A stretch of DNA of 64,000 nt from an uncultured Methylomirabilota bacterium (GCA_963845565.1 CAWJSJ010000002.1:1664001-1728000), one strand, 5' to 3'; positions 48,700 through 63,066 are shown, numbered from the stretch's first letter. Numbers and translations: made by a program. The notes: generated by a model from the letters alone, not told the origin.

Positions 48700-50793
48700 T
48701 TAGGTGGCCAAAGCCAGCCGGGCGTCGATCGCCACGGCGCCTCCTCCTTCCGGCTTCACCAGCAGCGGGTTGACATCCAGTTCGAGGATCTCCGGGAAAT
48801 CGACACAGAGCTGGGAGAGTCGCCCCAGCGCATCCACCATGGCGGGCATGTCCGACGGCTTCTCGCCCCGGACGCCACGCAGCAGGGGGAACGACTGGAT
48901 CTCGCGGATCATGGCCTCGGCCTCGTCCGGGCCGATCGGGGCCACCCGGAACGCCACATCCTTGAGCACCTCGACATAGATGCCGCCCAGACCGAACATG
49001 AGGAGCGGCCCGAACGACGGATCGCGGGTCATCCCCAGGATGACTTCCTTGCCGCCGGCCACCATCTCCTGCACGGCGATTCCCTGGATGACCGCCGCAG
49101 GGAAGAAGCGGCGCACGCTGGCGTCGATCCCCTGAAACCCCTGGGCTACCGCATCCGCGTCCTGAAGGTTTAGCCGGACGCCACCCACGTCGGTCTTGTG
49201 CAGGATGTCCGGCGAGACGATCTTGAGGGCGACCGGGAATCCGATGCGTGCGGCCGTGGCAACCGCCTCGTCCACGGTGCGGGTCAGGACGTTCTGGGGG
49301 AGGCGAAAGCCGTAGGCCGAGATCACCTCGCGCGCCTCGCGCTCCCCGAGTTGATTCCGCCCCTGACGGCGGACCGCCTCGAAGAGCTGCGCCACCCGGG
49401 CCCGGTCCACGGAGAAGTGCTGCGGCGCCGCGGGTGCGGAGTTGAGCCAGGTCCGGTACTTGACCATGGCTTCGAAGGTCTTGACGGCCGGCTCGGGATA
49501 CGGGTACTGGGGGACGCTGTACTGCCGGAGGATGGCGCGTGCCTTGGTGAGGCTGGCCTCGCCCATGAAGGCCGTGAAGAGCGGTTTTTTTCCGGCTGCG
49601 GCAGCCTGACCGGCCGCCTCGGCGAACTTGTCGTAGTCGGTCATGGCCTGGGGTGTGCACAGGGCCAGGACGCCGTCCACGCCGGGGTCGGCCGCCACGG
49701 CGTCCAGCGCGGCCTTGTAGCGATCCTCCTTGGCGTCGCCGATGACGTCCACCGGATTATAGAGGGCCGCCGTCGGCGGCAGGGCCACCCGCAGCCGCTC
49801 CACCGTCGCCGGGCTCAGGCTGGCCATCTTCACCAGCGAGCGCTCCACGGCGTCCGCGGCGATGATCCCCGGACCGCCGGCGTTGGTCACGATGCAGAGG
49901 TTCGGCCCTTCGGGGAGGGGCTGGTAGGCGAAAGCCCGGGCGAAGTCGAACAACTCTTCGATACTGTCGGCGCGCAGCACCCCCGCCTGGCGGAAGGCCG
50001 CAGTGAAGGCCCGGTCGGACCCGGCCAGCGTGCCGGTGTGGGAAGAGGCGGCGCGCGCCCCGGCCGTGGTCCGGCCAGATTTCACGATGATCAGCGGTTT
50101 CTTCCGGCTGGCGGCTTTGGCGACTTCCATGAAGCGCTGGCCGTTCTCCACCCCCTCGACGTACCCGATCACCACCCGGGTCTCTGGGTCGGCAGCCAGG
50201 GCCTCGATGAAATCGACCTCGGAGGAGTCGGCCTTGTTTCCCAGGCTGATGAATTTGGAGAAGCCGACCTCGTTGCCGATGGCCCAGTCCAGGATGGCTG
50301 TGCAAAGGGCGCCGGACTGGGAGAAGAACCCGATCTCGCCCACCGGAGGCATCCCGGCGGCAAAGGTGGCGTTCAGGCAGCTCTTCGTGTCGATCACGCC
50401 CAGACAGTTCGGGCCGATGACCCGGATTCCCAGCTCTCGAACACGGGTGCGCAGGGCCTTCTCCAACTCGGCCCCCTCGCCGCCCACCTCTTTGAAGCCG
50501 GCCGAGATCACGATGGCGTACCGGATGCCCCTGGCGGCGCACGCCTCCAGCGCGGGGAGGCATGCCTTGGGCGGGATCACCAGGACGGCCAGGTCCGCGT
50601 CCGGCGGAAGGTCCTTGACGTCGGGATAGGAGGCGAGGCCCAGAATCTCGCTAGCCTTGGGGTTGACGGGGTAGATGGGGCCGGGGAATCCCCCCCGGAT
50701 AAGGTTCATGGTGATGCTGAAGCCGACCTTGCCCTCTTCCCGGGATGCGCCGACGACGGCAACCGCCTTGGGTTTGAAGAATCCATCCAGCAT
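48700..50793 (-). CDS. Acetate/acyl-CoA ligase (ADP-forming), fused alpha-beta
   Basis: VVGAS, IGPNCLG, SQSGA, ASSHTG phospho-His, HKTDVGGV ATP-grasp; no GNAT domain. Confidence 0.92.
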   Translation of the reverse strand: MLDGFFKPKAVAVVGASREEGKVGFSITMNLIRGGFPGPIYPVNPKASEILGLASYPDVKDLPPDADLAVLVIPPKACLPALEACAARGIRYAIVISAGFKEVGGEGAELEKALRTRVRELGIRVIGPNCLGVIDTKSCLNATFAAGMPPVGEIGFFSQSGALCTAILDWAIGNEVGFSKFISLGNKADSSEVDFIEALAADPETRVVIGYVEGVENGQRFMEVAKAASRKKPLIIVKSGRTTAGARAASSHTGTLAGSDRAFTAAFRQAGVLRADSIEELFDFARAFAYQPLPEGPNLCIVTNAGGPGIIAADAVERSLVKMASLSPATVERLRVALPPTAALYNPVDVIGDAKEDRYKAALDAVAADPGVDGVLALCTPQAMTDYDKFAEAAGQAAAAGKKPLFTAFMGEASLTKARAILRQYSVPQYPYPEPAVKTFEAMVKYRTWLNSAPAAPQHFSVDRARVAQLFEAVRRQGRNQLGEREAREVISAYGFRLPQNVLTRTVDEAVATAARIGFPVALKIVSPDILHKTDVGGVRLNLQDADAVAQGFQGIDASVRRFFPAAVIQGIAVQEMVAGGKEVILGMTRDPSFGPLLMFGLGGIYVEVLKDVAFRVAPIGPDEAEAMIREIQSFPLLRGVRGEKPSDMPAMVDALGRLSQLCVDFPEILELDVNPLLVKPEGGGAVAIDARLALAT

Positions 50794-50826
50794 AGTGTCC
50801 CCTCCGTCCTCCGATGATGGAGACGC

Positions 50827-50864
50827 AAAGTCCAGGGGTCTCCCGCGGAGTCCCCTGGACTTTT
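50827..50864. terminator. Intergenic hairpin between the CBS gene and the acyl-CoA ligase
   Basis: AAAGTCCAGGGG/CCCCTGGACTTT 12-bp stem. Confidence 0.6.
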
Positions 50865-50927
50865 CTGCGGAGCGCCGGAGCCCCCCTCCGTTGTTCGATG
50901 CGTCCCGTGCGCGCGGAATCTTCCGAC

Positions 50928-51572
50928 CTACGCGATGGCCGAGAGCACCGTGTGGCCGCTCGCCTCGAGTCGCTTGACAAGCGGATCCAGCGCCACGCCT
51001 TCCAGACGGAAGAGCATGACCTTCTTTGGCTCCCCACGGTGCGAAGCCGTGGCTGTGACGACGCTGACGATGTCCCCGCCCTGGTCCTGAACGATCCGGC
51101 AGGCATCCAGGAAGGCCCCGGCGCGTTCTTCCAGGACCAGTTCCAGCCGCGTCTGCTCGGCCTGGATGCCCATCACCTCCACGAAGGCACTCAGGATGTC
51201 GGTCTCGGTGATGATCCCGACGAGCGCCATTCCCCGGAGGACCGGCAGGCTGCCGATGCGATGCGTGAGCATCAGGCGGGCGGCCGCCTCGATGGGCATC
51301 TCGGGCATCGCAGTCACGACCTCGGATGTCATGATATCACGGATCTTGATCTTCTCCAGCAGGTAGTGCAGTTCGTGGACCTCGAGGCTGGTGGCGGCAG
51401 ACGGAGAGGCCTGGCGTACGTCGCGGTCGGTGACGATCCCGACCAATCGCCCCCCCTCCACCACGGGCAAATGACGAATCCCGCGCTGGCGGATGAGGTT
51501 CATGGCGTGCCGGAACGAATCCTGGGGCCCGACCGTAATCGGGTTGGCTTTCATCCACCTCTCGACAAGCAT
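50928..51572 (-). CDS. CBS-pair + ACT domain protein (AcuB-like)
   Basis: IRHLPVV..GRLVGIVTDRD, IGSLPV, GIITETD, C-terminal ACT-like region. Confidence 0.9.
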   Translation of the reverse strand: MLVERWMKANPITVGPQDSFRHAMNLIRQRGIRHLPVVEGGRLVGIVTDRDVRQASPSAATSLEVHELHYLLEKIKIRDIMTSEVVTAMPEMPIEAAARLMLTHRIGSLPVLRGMALVGIITETDILSAFVEVMGIQAEQTRLELVLEERAGAFLDACRIVQDQGGDIVSVVTATASHRGEPKKVMLFRLEGVALDPLVKRLEASGHTVLSAIA

Positions 51573-51634
51573 GGCCCCCTCCGAGGTAGCGGTCCCGCGC
51601 GCCGCCGGGTCAGGGCTCTGCGACTGGGGAGGAA

Positions 51635-52570
51635 TCAGGCGGCCGCATGAATGCTAAGGACCGGACAAGGGGCGGTGCGGACGACCTGCTCCGCGGTGCT
51701 CCCCATGAGGAAATGGTCCAGCCCCGTCAGGCCCTTGGTGCCCATGACGATCAGGTCGACCGCGTGCGCCCTCGCAAAGCGGTTGATCTGGTGGAACGGC
51801 GGGCCGGCGACCACGACCACGGCGGTCCGCGGGGTCCCGTGGAGCACTCGCCGCACCTCGCGCTGCACGGTGTCCTCGGCGAACCGGATCATCTCGCCCC
51901 GCAGTTGTTCCAGTGGGGCGTGGGGGATATGGGAGCAGGCGACATCCCACGGATCGTAGACGGCATGCAGGACCGTCAGGTCGGCGTCGAATCTCTGCGC
52001 CATGGCGCCGGCGCTTTGCAGAACGTCCCGGTCCAAGGGGGAGAGGTCCACCGGACACAGGATGTGTCGGATGCGGACGGGCGCTGCGGCGTCCAGGCGC
52101 GGAGCCTGCCGCGGCTCGTGGGCGCGGACCTCTTCGGGGGAGGCGGTGAGGCTCCTGGCGCGCAGAAGCAGGACCGGGACCGGCGCGTGACGGGCCACGG
52201 TTTCCGCCACGCTGCCCAAGACCCAGCGCCGGAATCCGCTCCGGCCATGGGTGGACATGGCGATCAGGTCTATCCCGTTGGTGCGGGTGTGATCCAGGAT
52301 CTCCTCGGCGGCGTGGCCGTAGCGGACGACACCCTGGACCGTGAGTCCCTGAGCGGCGAGGCCCGCCTCGATCTTGGTCAGGTACCCCTGTGCGCTCTCG
52401 ACGGCGCGAACCTGAGCGTCCGCCGGGTTCGCGCCGGGGAGGTTGTGGGCCAGGACCACGCGCACGAGCACGACCTCGGCCTTCCGCAGGTTGGCCAACT
52501 CGACGACTTGGGGCAGGACCGACTCGGCCAGGGGCGATCCGTCCAGCGGAACCAGGATGCGCGACAACAT
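51635..52570 (-). CDS. Tandem-domain universal stress protein
   Basis: ILVPLDGS..MSTHGRSG..GSVAE and ILCPVDLS..MGTKG..GSTAE. Confidence 0.92.
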   Translation of the reverse strand: MLSRILVPLDGSPLAESVLPQVVELANLRKAEVVLVRVVLAHNLPGANPADAQVRAVESAQGYLTKIEAGLAAQGLTVQGVVRYGHAAEEILDHTRTNGIDLIAMSTHGRSGFRRWVLGSVAETVARHAPVPVLLLRARSLTASPEEVRAHEPRQAPRLDAAAPVRIRHILCPVDLSPLDRDVLQSAGAMAQRFDADLTVLHAVYDPWDVACSHIPHAPLEQLRGEMIRFAEDTVQREVRRVLHGTPRTAVVVVAGPPFHQINRFARAHAVDLIVMGTKGLTGLDHFLMGSTAEQVVRTAPCPVLSIHAAA

Positions 52571-52592
52571 GGCATCCCCTCCTGCACCCCGT

Positions 52593-53057
52593 CTAGGGCA
52601 TCTCGAACCTCATGGCGGGATGCTTGACGGTCAGAACCGGGCAGGAGGCTTTGCGCACGACCTTCTCGGCCACGCTGCCGACGAGGGCGTGGGCCAAGCC
52701 GGTCCGCCCGTGGGTCGCCATGACGATCAGGTCGATCTCGTGTTTTCGAGCGTAATCTATGATCTCGTGAAAGTCCACCCCGATGCGCACCTCCCGATGG
52801 AATGTGAGGTGGCGGTCCTTGGCCCCTTCGACCAAGCGATCCAGGAACGTCTCGGCCTCGGCGGTGACCACCGCGGAGAATTTCGCGGGGTCGAAGTTCA
52901 TCGAGTACGCCTCGGTGAGCCGCGGCGGCGGAGCCACCACGTGGAGGACGTGCACGTCCGCGCCGAAGTCTTGCGCAAACTGCAGTGCGAACATCCAGGC
53001 GTGATCTGCGGATTCGGAAAAGTCAGTGGGGAACAGGATCCGTCGGATCGGCATCAT
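52593..53057 (-). CDS. Universal stress protein
   Basis: ILFPTDFS, MATHGRTG, GSVAEKVVRKA. Confidence 0.93.
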   Translation of the reverse strand: MMPIRRILFPTDFSESADHAWMFALQFAQDFGADVHVLHVVAPPPRLTEAYSMNFDPAKFSAVVTAEAETFLDRLVEGAKDRHLTFHREVRIGVDFHEIIDYARKHEIDLIVMATHGRTGLAHALVGSVAEKVVRKASCPVLTVKHPAMRFEMP

Positions 53058-53090
53058 GGCGCCCTCCTTCCTCGGTGCGGCGCCCGCCGG

Positions 53091-53483
53091 TCAGAGCGAC
53101 ACGATAGCGCCCCGCCCGGCTAGCGCGGCGTGCACGGCGGCGATCAGCTCGGCCATTCGCAATGGCTTGCTGATGAACGCCGCCGCCCCCAGTTCCAGGG
53201 CTCGACTGTAACTGTGCCAGTCTCCGAAGGCGGTCACGATGATGACGGGGAGGGACGGATGAGTGCGGTGGACGGCCTCGAGCAGTTCCAGCCCCCCGTC
53301 GCAGGGCATGAGCATGTCCGTCACGACGAGGTCGAAGGTCTCGCGGTCGAATGCGATCAACGCCTGGTGCCCATCGCCGGAGACGGACACCCGGTAGCCC
53401 TCTTTTTCGAGGACTTTCCGTAGGAGGTCGCGCATCTCCGGATCATCTTCGACGATCAAGAGATGCTCGCCAGAACCTTTCAT
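53091..53483 (-). CDS. Single-domain response regulator
   Basis: IVEDD, VTD phosphoacceptor, TAFG, KP. Confidence 0.92.
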   Translation of the reverse strand: MKGSGEHLLIVEDDPEMRDLLRKVLEKEGYRVSVSGDGHQALIAFDRETFDLVVTDMLMPCDGGLELLEAVHRTHPSLPVIIVTAFGDWHSYSRALELGAAAFISKPLRMAELIAAVHAALAGRGAIVSL

Positions 53484-56465: not shown

Positions 56466-56552
56466 GCTGTCTCACCTCGGGTGGCGGGCCGTCACAGCGC
56501 GCCGACAGCGCGCAAGTCGACGGGCGATCCGGCCGCCCAGTTTGCGAAAGGG

Positions 56553-56655
56553 TTAGGAGCCGTTACGAAATAACTTGTCCATTTCTTGATTTCGTTACGG
56601 CTCCTTACGCCGTTTCCGAAATTTCTCCCGTCAATTAATTCTTTGACAACGCTTA
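56553..56655. mobile_element. MITE-like element family B, copy 3 (diverged loops)
   Basis: Same arms TTAGGAGCCGTTACGAAAT / ATTTCGTTACGGCTCCTTA / ATTCTTTGACAAC. Confidence 0.78.
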
Positions 56656-57377: not shown

Positions 57378-57404
57378 CGAGCGGCAGGCGGCGAGATGTC
57401 GTCG

Positions 57405-57860
57405 CTACTTCTGGACCGGATACCCGGCCTTTTCCCAGCCGGCAACGTAGCCCGCAGCCAGATGCTTCACGTTGGTGTAGCCCTTGAAGCTCAAGGCCTC
57501 GGCAACGTAGCCCGACCGAACGGCCGACGCACAGACGACCACGATCTGCGCGTTCTTGTCCTGGGGGAGCTTGGCCAGGCTCTTGGGCACCTCGCGCACC
57601 GGAACGTTGAGGGCTCCTTCGATCCGGCCCCCCGCGAACTCGTTCGGCTCGCGCACGTCGAGCAGGAAGACCTGCTCGCCGGAGTCCAGCTTGGCCTTCA
57701 GGGCATCGCCCCGGATCCCGTTGAATCCTTGCGGAAGAGTCTCAAGGTACTTGGCGGCCTCCTCCCAGGCGGCGCCGTTTTCGGTGGCGCCGGAGGTGGT
57801 GACCCCCGCGGCCACGACCAGGATCGCGGCCAAAAGGACGAAAGACAGTTTCCGAATCAT
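57405..57860 (-). CDS. Periplasmic single-domain rhodanese (sulfurtransferase)
   Basis: Signal peptide, LLDVREPNEF, active loop CASAVRS, GWEKAGYP; AAGGAG RBS. Confidence 0.9.
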   Translation of the reverse strand: MIRKLSFVLLAAILVVAAGVTTSGATENGAAWEEAAKYLETLPQGFNGIRGDALKAKLDSGEQVFLLDVREPNEFAGGRIEGALNVPVREVPKSLAKLPQDKNAQIVVVCASAVRSGYVAEALSFKGYTNVKHLAAGYVAGWEKAGYPVQK

Positions 57861-58014
57861 CAGGCGTCTCTCCTTTCTTGATACATGTTCATGCCGCACA
57901 GCGCGTCCCATCCGGAACACCCTCCTCTGCGCGAAAGCGCCGGTCTCTTGCCGGCGCGGTTACAAGGTAAAGTCCGTAGCCGATACCTTCAAGCGAATTC
58001 TTCACCACGGCCCG

Positions 58015-59304
58015 CTACCGACGGGGCGGGATGGTCGGAACGGCGACCTTGCTGTTGGCCGCGGCCTCCGTCGGGTTGAGATCGCCCGGCTTCAGGAAGA
58101 TCCGCGCATTCCCATGACAATTGTTGCAACTCGCCGTGCGCGGCGTCTTCCGCTGGATGTTGTGAGGGACGGTGTCCTTCCAGGTCGGGACCGCGTCGTA
58201 GTTCGGCAATGCGTCCTTCACCTTTGCGTCCAGCATCGTCCGGACGGTCGGCGTGTGCCGGAGCAGGGTGTACTGATAGGGGGAGCCAGGGTGAGCGGTC
58301 TTGCCGATCTTGAACTGGAGCGAGGATTTCGCCCCCGTACCCAAGTGGCAATTTTCGCAGCCCCGATACACGGTCGAATGGCATACCACGCAGTTGATCT
58401 TGTCGCCGTGGACCGCGTGCTGCTCGATGGACGATCCGGCCGCCTTGGCGTTGGGGTGGCAACCCAGACAGGACGGCTTGCTCTTGACTGCATGCCGGTT
58501 CGGATAGGCGGTGCCATCCCCGTGGAGCTGGGTGGCCGGATGGCAGGCCACGCAATCCATCTTGGCTTTCTGCCAGTGGATGTCCGGCGGGAAGCCTTCG
58601 TTCTTCCCGGTGTATTCGGGGAATACTCGGCCGCCGTGGCAGGTCCCGCAGGCGTCCTCCATCGGGGGTCGCTTCGCAAAGAGGTGCCCATCCATCAGGC
58701 CGCCGCGCGCCGACTTCGCCTTGCTGACGTGGCAGTCGCCGCAGCTCGCATGGCAACCCTGACAGGCCTGCTTGAACACGGGTTGGACGTCCGGCCAGCG
58801 GTGGGCCGAGACCAGCTTGAGGAAATTCTCGTCACCACGCACGGTGAAGTGCAGGCTGGTCTTGACGTTCGCCACCTCCTTCTCGTGGCAGGCGGCGCAG
58901 GCGGAATCCGGGTCTCGCGAGGGGCGCGCCACCAGGCCCTTGTGCGCGGCCTCCTTGCCCCCGGCCTTGGGATCGCCCTTGTGGCACGTCTCGCAGCCAT
59001 CCATGGCATGCGTGCTGGTCAGGAACGCCGGCTTCACCAGGTAGCGCTGGTACGGTTCCCCCGACGGGGGCGGAGGCCCGCTTCACCCTTCGCCTTCTTC
59101 GGTGGACGGGGGATCGGGCGGGGTGAGCGGTTTCAGTTTGGCCGCGTCGGTGTGGCAGGCGACGCATTGCGAGGGGGCCGAATCGGCCGCGTCGATCGAA
59201 CCGATCCCGCCCAGGACAAGTAGGCCGGCGAAGAGGAGGATGAGAATGATGACGGCACGCTGCCGCCCCAGGGGAGGGCACGCATCGATTCCGTGTGGGT
59301 TCAT
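58015..59304 (-). CDS. Multiheme cytochrome c (11 CxxCH, 429 aa) with in-frame TGA at codon 74, probable selenocysteine
   Basis: ORFs 59083-59304 and 58015-59037 share a frame, separated only by TGA and 15 sense codons; signal/TM segment only in the first part; 1+10 heme motifs. Confidence 0.8.
59052..59081 (-). promoter_or_regulatory. SECIS-like hairpin
   Basis: After UGA: AGCGGGCCUCCG-CCCCC-GUC-GGGGG-AACCGU; G-containing apical loop about 17 nt from UGA. Confidence 0.55.
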
Positions 59305-59391
59305 GAAGATGACTCCACGTTTGAGGACGCCTCGGACCCGGCCGCGAGACCCCGCCGAGGGTGCAGTCTCATTTGAACTGTTGTGGAATAC

Positions 59392-59407
59392 AGCAAAACA
59401 TGTTCCA
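59392..59407 (-). promoter_or_regulatory. Putative sigma54 promoter of the cytochrome-rhodanese operon
   Basis: Minus strand TGGAACATGTTTTGCT with correct GG/GC spacing. Confidence 0.7.
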
Positions 59408-59495
59408 TCACCGTTCGAATGCGCACGCGTTTCCGTAACCTCTTGTCAATGCAAGGTTAATCGTTACTCAGCGGCCGATGCCAGGCAAACCATCG

Positions 59496-59602
59496 GTGTT
59501 GCATGCAACACGAATACGGACACAAATTATCGACAGATAGTCTGAAGCACTCTCAAAATCAGTTAAATAGATCCACTCGATAAGGTGCAACAGGCGTTGC
59601 AC
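59496..59602. promoter_or_regulatory. Two TGCAAC/GTTGCA palindromes, candidate enhancer sites
   Basis: GTGTTGCATGCAACAC (59496-59511) and GTGCAAC-AGGC-GTTGCAC (59585-59602). Confidence 0.6.
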
Positions 59603-59699
59603 GGGAACATTGATCAGACCGGAGAGCAGATGGTGAGAGACGGGGATGACGCTCTGGCGTGATCCATCGCGAGGGGCCGACCGACCCCGGACGTCAGTG

Positions 59700-59897
59700 T
59701 CACCCGCAGTCCGACCACGAAGGATCCCAAGGGATGATCTCGTCGGGGGGGTGGGTCGCTTGCCCTTCTCCTCGAGGGTCCGGGTAGATCAGCGTCAGGC
59801 CGCAGAGCGGGCACCGGACGTCGAGTTGGTTCGGGTTCTCGGCCGATATCAGGAATGCGCGCTGGCAGGCGCGACACGTCACGGTGGTTTGCAGCAT
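59700..59897 (-). CDS. Small zinc-ribbon protein (65 aa)
   Basis: CRAC...CPLC; GGGAG RBS. Confidence 0.6.
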   Translation of the reverse strand: MLQTTVTCRACQRAFLISAENPNQLDVRCPLCGLTLIYPDPRGEGQATHPPDEIIPWDPSWSDCG

Positions 59898-59918
59898 GCA
59901 AGTTCTCCCGGAATCCGC

Positions 59919-61661
59919 TCAGGAGCCGACTGGACCGGATGGGACCGCGATGCCCCAGCGCCGCATCTTTCGCCAGAGCGTCGTGCGATCCATTCCGAGC
60001 CGAGCCGCCGCGAGGCCGCGATTCCACCGGGTGGACTCCAGCGCGCGGAGCAGATGCGCCTTTTCATCCGCCGCGGGGACCGGAGTCCTGGATGGGTCCG
60101 GGCGCTGTGGGTCGCTCTTTGGGCTCGCCAGGATCGAGCGAGGCAGGGTGTCCGGCTCGATCATGCCACCCCGGGAGCAAACCATAGCATGCTCCAGGGC
60201 GTTCTCCAATTCACGGATGTTTCCCGGCCAGTCATGGTCTAGGAGAACGGACATGGTGTGCGGCGAGACGGCCAGGGCCCTCCCCTTGGCTTTGGCGGCG
60301 AAGCGATCCAGCAGGGATTCGACCAGCGCCGGGATGTCGGCCTTGCGTTCCCGTAAAGCGGGGATGTGGATCGGGATCACGTTGAGACGATAGTACAGGT
60401 CCTCGCGAAACCTCCGTTCGCGCATCAGTTGGGGCAGGTCGCGATGCGTGGCGGCAATCACCCGGACGTCCACCTGGATGGTCTCGTTGCCTCCGAGCCG
60501 TTCGAATTGCTGCTCCTGGAGCACGCGCAGCAGCTTGACCTGGACGGTCGGGCTCAGATCACCGATCTCGTCGAGAAAGATGGTGCCTTTGTCCGCCAAC
60601 TCGAAACGCCCCTTCCGCTCCTTGATGGCGCCCGTGAAGGCGCCCTTTTCATGGCCGAACAGCTCGCTTTCCAGGAGCGTTTCGGGAAGCGCGGCGCAGC
60701 TCACTTTGACGAACGGGTGGCGCTCCCGTGGGCTGAGGTAGTGCAGGGCGTGGGCGAAGAGGTCCTTGCCTGTTCCGCTCTCTCCCTGGAGCAGGACCGT
60801 GGAGTCGCTGTCCTTGATCATCTCCACCAGATCGAAGATCTCGCGCATTCGGGGGTGCGCCCCGATGATTTGCAGGAAGGGGGTTCGCCGTCGGCGCTCG
60901 TCCACGATCTGCTCGATCTCCCGAAGATCGCGGAAGGTGCAGACGGCGCCGAGCGTAGACCCAGCCTCGTCGCGGAACGGGCCGGTGCAGACGCTGAGCG
61001 GGATCGTCCTTCCGCTCGGTCCAACGATGGCGAGCTCCCGATTGCGGACGACCCGGCCTGTCCGCAGCGTCTCCTGGAGGGGCGAGGCCGCGCCGCAGAT
61101 CTCGGCCGGGAGGAGGTCTGCGCAGGGCTTGCCCAGGACCGTGCCGGCCCGGCGATCCAGGACGCGCTCGGCGGTGCGATTCAAGCTGGTGATCCCACCG
61201 TCTCGATCCACGGTGAAGACGCCCTCGGCGATGGAGTCGAGGACCGCTTGCACCTTGTTGCGCTGCTCGCGCAGCTCGTCGATCAGGCGATTGATGTGCG
61301 TGACCACGCGGATGGTCTCCACCACGCCGACCACATCCCCCTTGGCGTTCTTGAGGGGGGAGGTGTTGATGCAGATGGGGGTGTCCGTTCCGGAGGCGTC
61401 CTTGGCCAGGACGTTGAACGTGGTCACGGTCTCGCCGCCCCGGAATGAGCGCTCGAAGGGGCAGCGCGCCGTGGCGCAGATTTCGCTCTGGAGGATCTGG
61501 CCGCACGACCGGCCGACGGCTGAGGTCTCGGGATGCCCCGTGAGGGTCTCGGCCGGTGCGTTCAGGGTGATGAGTCGCTGCTCGGCGTCAATGGTCAGGA
61601 CGGAGTCAGGGATGCTCCGCAGGATGTCCAAGACGTTGAGGGGTTCGATCGAAATGGGCAT
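59919..61661 (-). CDS. Sigma54-dependent activator (PAS-PAS-AAA+-Fis HTH)
   Basis: GESGTGKD, ESELFGHEKGAFTGA, FREDLYYRLNV, WPGNIREL, LGMDRTTLWRKM. Confidence 0.95.
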   Translation of the reverse strand: MPISIEPLNVLDILRSIPDSVLTIDAEQRLITLNAPAETLTGHPETSAVGRSCGQILQSEICATARCPFERSFRGGETVTTFNVLAKDASGTDTPICINTSPLKNAKGDVVGVVETIRVVTHINRLIDELREQRNKVQAVLDSIAEGVFTVDRDGGITSLNRTAERVLDRRAGTVLGKPCADLLPAEICGAASPLQETLRTGRVVRNRELAIVGPSGRTIPLSVCTGPFRDEAGSTLGAVCTFRDLREIEQIVDERRRRTPFLQIIGAHPRMREIFDLVEMIKDSDSTVLLQGESGTGKDLFAHALHYLSPRERHPFVKVSCAALPETLLESELFGHEKGAFTGAIKERKGRFELADKGTIFLDEIGDLSPTVQVKLLRVLQEQQFERLGGNETIQVDVRVIAATHRDLPQLMRERRFREDLYYRLNVIPIHIPALRERKADIPALVESLLDRFAAKAKGRALAVSPHTMSVLLDHDWPGNIRELENALEHAMVCSRGGMIEPDTLPRSILASPKSDPQRPDPSRTPVPAADEKAHLLRALESTRWNRGLAAARLGMDRTTLWRKMRRWGIAVPSGPVGS

Positions 61662-62916: not shown

Positions 62917-63043
62917 CAGGCTGCTGAAAAAGGCCCATCTGCCGCGTTGGCGCGCTCGCGCGGCGCTGCCGCGTACCGCTTCAGTACGCCTCGCACCTCG
63001 CATCACGCGCCGCCTTGCATCTGGACCTTTTTGAGCAGCCCTG
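62917..63043 (+). mobile_element. MITE-like element family A, copy 3 (no REP insert)
   Basis: CAGGCTGCTGAAAAAGGCCCATCTGC...GCCTTGCATCTGGACCTTTTTGAGCAGCC. Confidence 0.75.
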
Positions 63044-63066
63044 TTGGTTCCGATTCACCACACGAG

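Follow-up and report, generated by a model that had tools for sequence, protein, structure and literature searches.

A predicted selenocysteine-containing 11-heme cytochrome encoded beside a rhodanese: a distant OTR relative and candidate sulfane-sulfur reductase

Organization of the locus

We analyzed a 64,000-nucleotide (nt) stretch of DNA from an uncultured Methylomirabilota bacterium (GCA_963845565.1, CAWJSJ010000002.1:1664001-1728000), hereafter the window, which is part of contig C2 of a 5.36-Mb genome with 66% GC. Our subject is a two-gene unit within it that encodes an 11-heme c-type cytochrome, whose reading frame is crossed by a TGA, and an exported rhodanese. The original prediction, made from the sequence alone, had listed a sigma54 motif, the 11-heme protein, a rhodanese with a CASAVR loop, a terminator, two palindromes, a zinc-ribbon mini-protein, and a PAS-PAS activator. 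All of these parts were found in the window, each on the minus strand. The features of the two-gene unit are as follows; those upstream of it are given with its regulation.

59407-59392, minus strand: sigma54 -24/-12 promoter motif, TGGAAC-N5-TTGCT, one mismatch to the consensus
59304-58015, minus strand: exported 11-heme c-type cytochrome with predicted selenocysteine U74 and a core related to octaheme tetrathionate reductase (OTR), 429 amino acids (aa)
59085-59083, minus strand: in-frame TGA, predicted to be read as selenocysteine, context EGEG-U-SG
59070-59058, minus strand: putative selenocysteine insertion sequence (SECIS) stem-loop, 5 bp, G first in the loop, 13 nt after the UGA
57860-57405, minus strand: single-domain exported rhodanese, 151 aa, active-site Cys110 in CASAVR
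57378-57348, minus strand: intrinsic terminator hairpin, 14 bp, z -2.0 versus shuffles

Read through the TGA, the cytochrome has a signal-like N-terminus (assigned by eye), one CxxCH motif, a Pro/Gly/Glu linker carrying U74, and ten further CxxCH motifs, which places 1 of its 11 motifs before the TGA and 10 after it. The rhodanese, whose signal peptide was also assigned by eye, matches PF00581 at 68.7 bits against a cut-off of 22.2. A hairpin between the two genes was no more stable than shuffled sequence (z -0.25).

Predicted selenocysteine at the in-frame TGA

The locus sample comprised 92 loci, 12 from genomes (the window's own included) and the best 80 of 572 confirmed metagenome matches ranked by similarity to the window cytochrome, with five loci that duplicated the same records excluded. 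The codon at the selenocysteine (Sec) site could be placed in 89 loci, representing 44 groups at 70% identity, and was TGA in 86, TGG in 3, and TAA or TAG in none. The three loci that our script did not place were two truncated ones and L008, which has a TGA on inspection. Full-length members occurred in 9 of 201 sampled genomes of the phylum, each with one TGA. Among 50 full-length database homologs without a TGA, Cys was the commonest residue at the site (19), followed by Trp (7), Tyr (5), and others, with the caveat that alignment within the linker lacks precision. Sec, Cys, and other residues were interspersed in a midpoint-rooted tree. U74 is the only non-heme Cys or Sec of the mature window cytochrome, and 67 of 84 Sec members have no other either.

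A hairpin at nt 16-28 from the U was supported across 30 diverse sequences, in which 92.7% of cells were paired versus 73.4% after shuffling and 29 cells had changes on both sides; none of 500 shuffles scored as high, and all slid controls were lower. The hairpin by itself is not unusually stable (z -0.19 versus shuffles), and the support for a SECIS is covariation across relatives, not the stability of a single predicted hairpin. A Pro codon inside it is CCG in 81 of 86 loci, versus 44% at other Pro codons, and the wobble G at the loop is retained in 85 of 86. The Sec-type selD of the same genome shows the same SECIS geometry as the cytochrome, although this loose pattern has 10 genomic matches. 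This genome also holds intact selA, Sec-type selD, and tRNA-Sec (selC) genes. selA was present in 7 of 8 carriers and in 170 of 201 phylum genomes, so its co-occurrence does not discriminate. From these sequence comparisons, the TGA almost certainly encodes selenocysteine, and the Sec-containing cytochrome of the original prediction is borne out by the conserved TGA, the Cys substitutions, and the covarying hairpin. Most database entries that we retrieved were a truncated piece (340-aa products), often mislabelled as a sulfurtransferase.

A distant relative of OTR with three added hemes

The AlphaFold2 model of the cytochrome (predicted local distance difference test, pLDDT, 93.8; predicted template-modelling score 0.90) had OTR (1sp3) as its best structural match, with Z 9.9, a root-mean-square deviation of 4.1, and 260 aligned residues, while the next match had Z 5.2. 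Foldseek gave OTR a probability of 0.84 (E 0.015). A profile alignment with hhalign to the canonical OTR of the same genome reached a probability of 98.5 and kept all eight hemes of OTR in register: I-VIII fall on hemes 3-9 and 11 of the window cytochrome, with catalytic heme II corresponding to heme 4 (C181/C184/H185), whose motif is kept in 93-100% of each class. The protein therefore has an eight-heme core in OTR order and fold, and the family is a distant relative of OTR with three added hemes and a Sec linker. The relationship is remote at the level of sequence models: the window protein had no match to TIGR04315 (375-bit cut-off), and 24 of 81 members matched it weakly (best E 9e-8). Two OTR genes lie close together in this genome (G000:C2:2527480-2534196), one intact and one in several frames.

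Catalytic heme II of OTR has a Lys ligand and a conserved Cys (PMC3769277; bioRxiv 10.1101/2023.04.20.537704; here and below, statements from cited papers refer to the portions of their text that were available). Within alignment columns 153-180 of the present family, no Lys exceeded 30% and no Cys was among the common residues. Ten non-motif His are conserved for 11 hemes, which leaves one heme without a sixth His; judged by the OTR mapping, this is most likely heme 4. Arg226, Arg270, and Arg385 were 97-100% conserved in 83 Sec forms versus 47-57% in 36 forms without Sec or Cys, a pattern as would be expected of an anion-binding site decaying with the nucleophile, and one partly confounded by divergence.

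The PDB returned 0 matches for the single cytochrome sequence, while a family profile that included fused rhodanese columns returned only rhodaneses and weak cytochrome matches (OTR E 0.004). The ESM Atlas gave only generic multiheme cluster names, and mutual information, computed over 88 effective sequences in order to position the Sec linker, gave conservation artefacts only. The window cytochrome did not match the cytochrome models NF040886, NF041027, or TIGR04315, or the GUxG family NF049953, and no family listed among 119 catalogued prokaryotic selenoprotein families (PMC13188914 Table 1) matches.

Homology to the Geobacter ExtKL cytochrome and ExtH rhodanese was considered and rejected. 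NF040886 matched neither the window cytochrome, nor 81 family members, nor the locus in a genome search, and the ExtH model NF040901 was absent among the matches of the window rhodanese. The kinship that the original prediction had raised as a possibility is thus not upheld; the architecture differs as well, and the actual relative is OTR.

The closest relatives of the window cytochrome carry Methylomirabilota/NC10 or Rokubacteria names. Source names across the family include Methylomirabilota, Desulfobacterota, Nitrospirota, Nitrospinota, Chloroflexota, Bacillota, Spirochaetota, and Myxococcota.

Linkage to rhodaneses

A rhodanese was found in 72 of 89 loci. Among the 71 loci with 600 nt or more of downstream sequence, 65 had one, as did 42 of 46 groups, and it was almost always the following gene in the same orientation. 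For comparison, the same rhodanese profiles found four open reading frames (ORFs) in the whole of the window's genome, a lower bound given that Sec-split rhodaneses could be missed. The partners were single-domain, tandem, and multi-domain lipoprotein rhodaneses as well as fusions, the last at the C-terminus of the cytochrome in 7 loci and at the N-terminus in 2 (L097, L114). PF00581 was carried by 69 of 72 longer homologs, and the active-site Cys was invariant in 23 aligned single-domain neighbors. The repeated recruitment of different rhodaneses points to function instead of hitch-hiking, and the conserved neighborhood that had been proposed as a check on the prediction is borne out by this linkage and by fusions at either end.

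NrfC-like Fe-S genes were present in 11 loci and NrfD genes in 5, and one homolog was fused to a NapC domain, which suggests a link to the quinol pool.

Two kinds of exceptional loci were also observed. L014/L142 and L015/L143 hold a Sec-type cytochrome in genomes of 2.4 and 3.5 Mb with no rhodanese nearby, and the genes flanking the cytochrome encode a universal stress protein and what is probably a Lon-like ATPase (by eye). The three loci with TGG (Trp) at the Sec site are L094, L096, and L098; L094 and L096 also lack a rhodanese, and L096 retains an NrfC/NrfD module. These TGG forms are possibly a repurposed branch.

A member of the family in Dethiobacter

The family includes a protein from a cultured thiosulfate reducer, Dethiobacter alkaliphilus AHT1 (WP_008516925.1, our P0482), with 37% identity over 356 aa (E 2e-74). 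It has 10 CxxCH motifs and a mass of 39.315 kDa, equal to that of the published proteome row, and the protein that clusters with it is listed as the ortholog of DealDRAFT_1917. D. alkaliphilus reduces thiosulfate without DsrAB or molybdopterin enzymes, and how Dethiobacter respires thiosulfate is stated as an open question (PMC10376724). When that proteome was compared between thiosulfate and ferrihydrite, WP_008516925.1 was raised 2.4-fold on thiosulfate (q 0.03, 3 peptides), SelB 2-fold, and a zinc-ribbon protein encoded nearby ~10-fold (PMC10376724). The adjacent rhodanese was unchanged and ~140-fold more abundant by intensity-based absolute quantification, a measure that may undercount heme peptides (PMC10376724).

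The original prediction of a sulfur or selenium redox unit can be divided accordingly. A role in sulfur metabolism gains indirect support from the Dethiobacter proteome, while nothing specific points to the reduction of selenium oxyanions.

Proposed function and alternatives

We lean, by a modest degree, towards the reading that this two-gene unit, under sigma54 control, encodes a periplasmic enzyme that reduces sulfane sulfur bound to the rhodanese. By analogy with known rhodanese and Sud chemistry, the Cys of the exported rhodanese would be charged with sulfane sulfur from thiosulfate, with release of sulfite, or from polysulfide. Sec74, on a Gly-rich linker between hemes 1 and 2, would then attack the rhodanese persulfide and take over the sulfur. 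The resulting selenyl-sulfide would be reduced by two electrons at the heme without a sixth His (most likely heme 4), near which Sec74 would have to come, and HS- would be released. The other ten hemes would carry electrons from the quinol pool, and Sec74 may take the place of the Cys that is present in OTR and absent from the 11-heme family. The comparisons above show the conserved Sec codon with its SECIS, the 11 heme motifs, the homology and heme correspondence to OTR, and the rhodanese linkage; which heme is open, how near Sec lies to it, the sulfur transfer, the substrate, and the reductive direction are inferred.

Several observations weigh against this reading. On the side of the nucleophile, 31 of the 50 full-length homologs without a TGA lack both Cys and Sec, so the fold is maintained in its absence; model confidence is lowest in the Sec linker (pLDDT 73-83); and selB (G000:C4:5502-7391) is split over several frames in the window's own assembly, where the frameshifts are probably long-read assembly indels. 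The rhodanese is absent from 6 of the 71 loci (L015, L061, L063, L094, L095, L096), two genomes have none within 9-13 kb, and some fused rhodaneses lack the active Cys (P0122, P0186). No membrane electron donor of the NrfC, NrfD, or NapC type was found at the window locus. In D. alkaliphilus, Sec would have to be deduced from a missing signal peptide and a missing first heme, and the 2.4-fold effect is modest, with four other multihemes rising similarly (PMC10376724). The ortholog in strain Z-1002 was detected only in Fe(II)-oxidising cells, among two iron conditions. Z-1002 carries the gene and can reduce thiosulfate, yet it is unable to reduce elemental sulfur, an observation that speaks against a plain polysulfide reductase.

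The same chemistry might instead be oxidative or bidirectional, with sulfide forming a Sec or rhodanese persulfide and electrons passing to the membrane, as happens when sulfide is oxidised or sulfur disproportionates. We consider this rather unlikely, although the likeliest of the alternatives. In its favor, NrfC/NrfD modules are reversible, the Z-1002 ortholog was seen in Fe(II)-oxidising cells, and D. alkaliphilus AHT1 also disproportionates. Members also occur in Desulfolithobacter, Desulfobulbaceae, and Thermodesulfobacteriaceae records, lineages that include sulfur disproportionators (PMC13490349, for Desulfolithobacter). However, the sole induction data on a sulfur compound come from thiosulfate reduction, and both the nearest characterized relative, OTR, and the analog MccSep are reductases.

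An unlikely alternative is that the cytochrome is a non-catalytic, OTR-derived conduit like MmcA. The role of Sec would then be limited to tuning or ligating a heme, and the rhodanese would either be a passenger under shared regulation or work for some other enzyme. MmcA is a precedent for OTR descendants turning into wires, the family conserves no equivalent of the Lys ligand and catalytic Cys of OTR, and many homologs lack Sec or Cys. Against this stand the retained catalytic-heme motif, which MmcA does not have, the tracking of Arg226, Arg270, and Arg385 with Sec forms, and the rhodanese fusions at both ends.

A selenite, tellurite, or selenium-trafficking reductase, with the rhodanese carrying perselenide, appears improbable. 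MccSep does reduce selenite as a secondary activity (PMC13510729), and one neighboring LysR protein was best matched to the selenium-metabolism LysR model, at 217 bits versus a 250-bit cut-off. Yet no recurrent porin, ext-like, or selenium-specific gene was observed among the neighbor clusters, and the available induction is by thiosulfate. Equally hard to favor, and in our view quite improbable, is a promiscuous reductase of tetrathionate, nitrite, or hydroxylamine acting at the open heme with no persulfide carrier. It would suit an OTR scaffold with an apparently open heme, given that OTR reduces all three compounds, but it leaves the Sec and the rhodanese linkage unexplained, and the genome has a separate canonical OTR. 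Finally, it is highly improbable that the TGA is a true stop, whether it separates a small protein with one heme from another with ten or marks a pseudogene: the 340-aa database calls, the frameshifted selB, and the non-discriminating selA would allow it, but the site is never TAA or TAG in the 89 loci, continuous Cys homologs exist, the SECIS covaries, and the downstream 10-heme piece is without the signal peptide that attachment of c-type hemes requires.

Regulation and surrounding features

Upstream of the two-gene unit lie the following features.

59496-59511, no strand: perfect palindrome GTGTTGCA/TGCAACAC, candidate upstream activator site
59585-59602, no strand: palindrome GTGCAAC-N4-GTTGCAC, candidate upstream activator site
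59897-59700, minus strand: zinc-ribbon mini-protein, 65 aa, CxxC...CPxC, C-terminal WSDCG
61661-59919, minus strand: PAS-PAS sigma54 enhancer-binding protein, 580 aa, GAFTGA loop

The Pfam domains of the activator (PF08448 twice, PF00158, and PF02954) give a PAS-PAS-AAA+-HTH order. The zinc-ribbon ORF scored under the Pfam cut-off and was conserved in 5 other loci, all of the same clade. The sigma54 motif was observed in 11 of 16 other close loci (shuffle rate 0-6% per locus) versus 5 of 56 distant loci at scattered positions, and TGCAAC-type half-sites were found upstream in 15 of 16 clade loci, at 1-4 per locus versus ~0.25 in shuffles. A sigma54 activator was adjacent in 20 of 89 loci (5 of 46 groups), and a LysR regulator in 16 loci (13 groups). 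By these motif counts, the predicted sigma54 circuit is real but clade-specific, and the "dedicated sigma54 sensor" of the original prediction holds within the Methylomirabilota clade and not across the family. In the first PAS domain of the activator (window 61661-60900, minus strand), Cys53, Cys62, Cys67, and Cys97 are kept in all four full-length orthologs, the window's included, which makes this domain a candidate persulfide, metal, or heme sensor.

In RNA libraries, contigs with 97-100% identity extended over the rhodanese in all 4 runs and over portions of the cytochrome in X1 and X2; DNA carry-over is possible, and we give them little weight. No contig joined the cytochrome and rhodanese genes. 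Contigs of three studies (window 57396-57941) stop at 57925-57941, a short way upstream of where the rhodanese gene begins. This hints weakly that the rhodanese message is stable by itself, which would agree with the excess of rhodanese in Dethiobacter.

A second sigma54 motif, with the consensus TGGCAC-N5-TTGCT, lies at 57042-57027 (minus strand) and precedes an operon of a ferredoxin and 2-oxoacid:ferredoxin oxidoreductase alpha, beta, and gamma genes (56946-53831), an order shared with L002. Beyond this operon, window 48700-53483 (minus strand) holds an ADP-forming acyl-CoA ligase and, by eye, a probable CBS-domain protein, two probable universal stress proteins, and a response regulator. 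Many unrelated contigs match a short element between genes near 56550-56620, and a GC-rich intergenic stretch near 62940-63045 resembles it; both are possibly small repeat elements.

Significance

The family is widespread, is usually cut in two by databases, and does not appear among the 119 prokaryotic selenoprotein families catalogued in 2026 (PMC13188914 Table 1). We found no description of it as a selenoprotein, with subscription journals, most supplements, and NCBI models later than June 2026 aside, and it is not described in the available text of PMC13047784, PMC12142623, PMC13490349, PMC12545173, or PMC11492766. It offers a concrete candidate for thiosulfate respiration in Dethiobacter without DsrAB or molybdopterin enzymes, and the cultured carriers (D. 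alkaliphilus, Desulfitibacter alkalitolerans, Thermanaerosceptrum fracticalcis, and Metallumcola ferriviriculae) make it testable. dsrA was not found in the window's own genome, and the proposed function, if true, would add a potential for sulfur respiration to this NC10-type genome, whose size is not that of a methanotroph.

A broader possibility, which we put forward tentatively, is that the family is the missing terminal reductase of thiosulfate or sulfane sulfur in anaerobes without Psr/Phs and Dsr, such as Dethiobacter. Sec on a swinging linker would ligate the OTR-type catalytic heme or shuttle sulfur to it from the rhodanese persulfide, and the family would be a second, independent heme-selenium solution to S-S cleavage, hidden by gene callers across several phyla. 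Ligation by Sec would make a natural His/Sec heme, of which no example is known.

Comparison with known systems

OTR of Shewanella oneidensis (1sp3, TIGR04315) shares the homologous eight-heme core and the catalytic heme II motif. It differs in that the window family has three extra hemes, an N-terminal Sec linker, and a rhodanese linkage, and has neither a Lys ligand nor an active-site Cys in the stretch from heme 3 to heme 4. MmcA of Methanosarcina is likewise an OTR-derived multiheme protein without the Lys ligand, but it has lost catalytic heme II and acts as an electron conduit, while the window family keeps the motif (bioRxiv 10.1101/2023.04.20.537704).

The best functional analog is MccSep/ExtKL of Geobacter sulfurreducens (NF040886), also a periplasmic multiheme c-type selenoenzyme with its annotation split at the UGA; its cluster includes a rhodanese gene (ExtH), and MccSep reduces polysulfide (PMC13510729). 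Of its 5 hemes, the catalytic one is ligated by His and Cys, and its Sec325 lies in an Ig-like domain at the C-terminus (PMC13510729), whereas the window protein has 11 hemes, Sec between motifs 1 and 2, and no spare Cys. The MccSep structures (9WT8-9WTC) were not among the fold matches, and these entries may postdate the fold library.

The Dethiobacter protein (DealDRAFT_1917/WP_008516925.1) belongs to the same family, with 10 CxxCH motifs, an adjoining rhodanese, and a zinc ribbon two accession numbers away. It was published as a 10-heme SirA/Otr-like protein without a signal peptide, and earlier as a "thiosulfate sulfurtransferase"; the available text of these reports does not mention Sec or read-through (PMC10376724, PMC5609068).

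Sud and PsrABC of Wolinella succinogenes provide the precedent for the rhodanese, as Sud is a periplasmic single-domain rhodanese that presents polysulfide sulfur to a reductase (PMC2628731). Sud (1qxn) matches the neighbor-rhodanese profile (E 4.5e-18), as one of several similar matches. The Psr reductase is a molybdoenzyme, while the window reductase would be a heme/Sec enzyme. Taken together, the family descends from OTR, is a member of none of these systems by the criteria applied here, and, on a reading that we hold with only slight preference, would work like MccSep and Sud/Psr.

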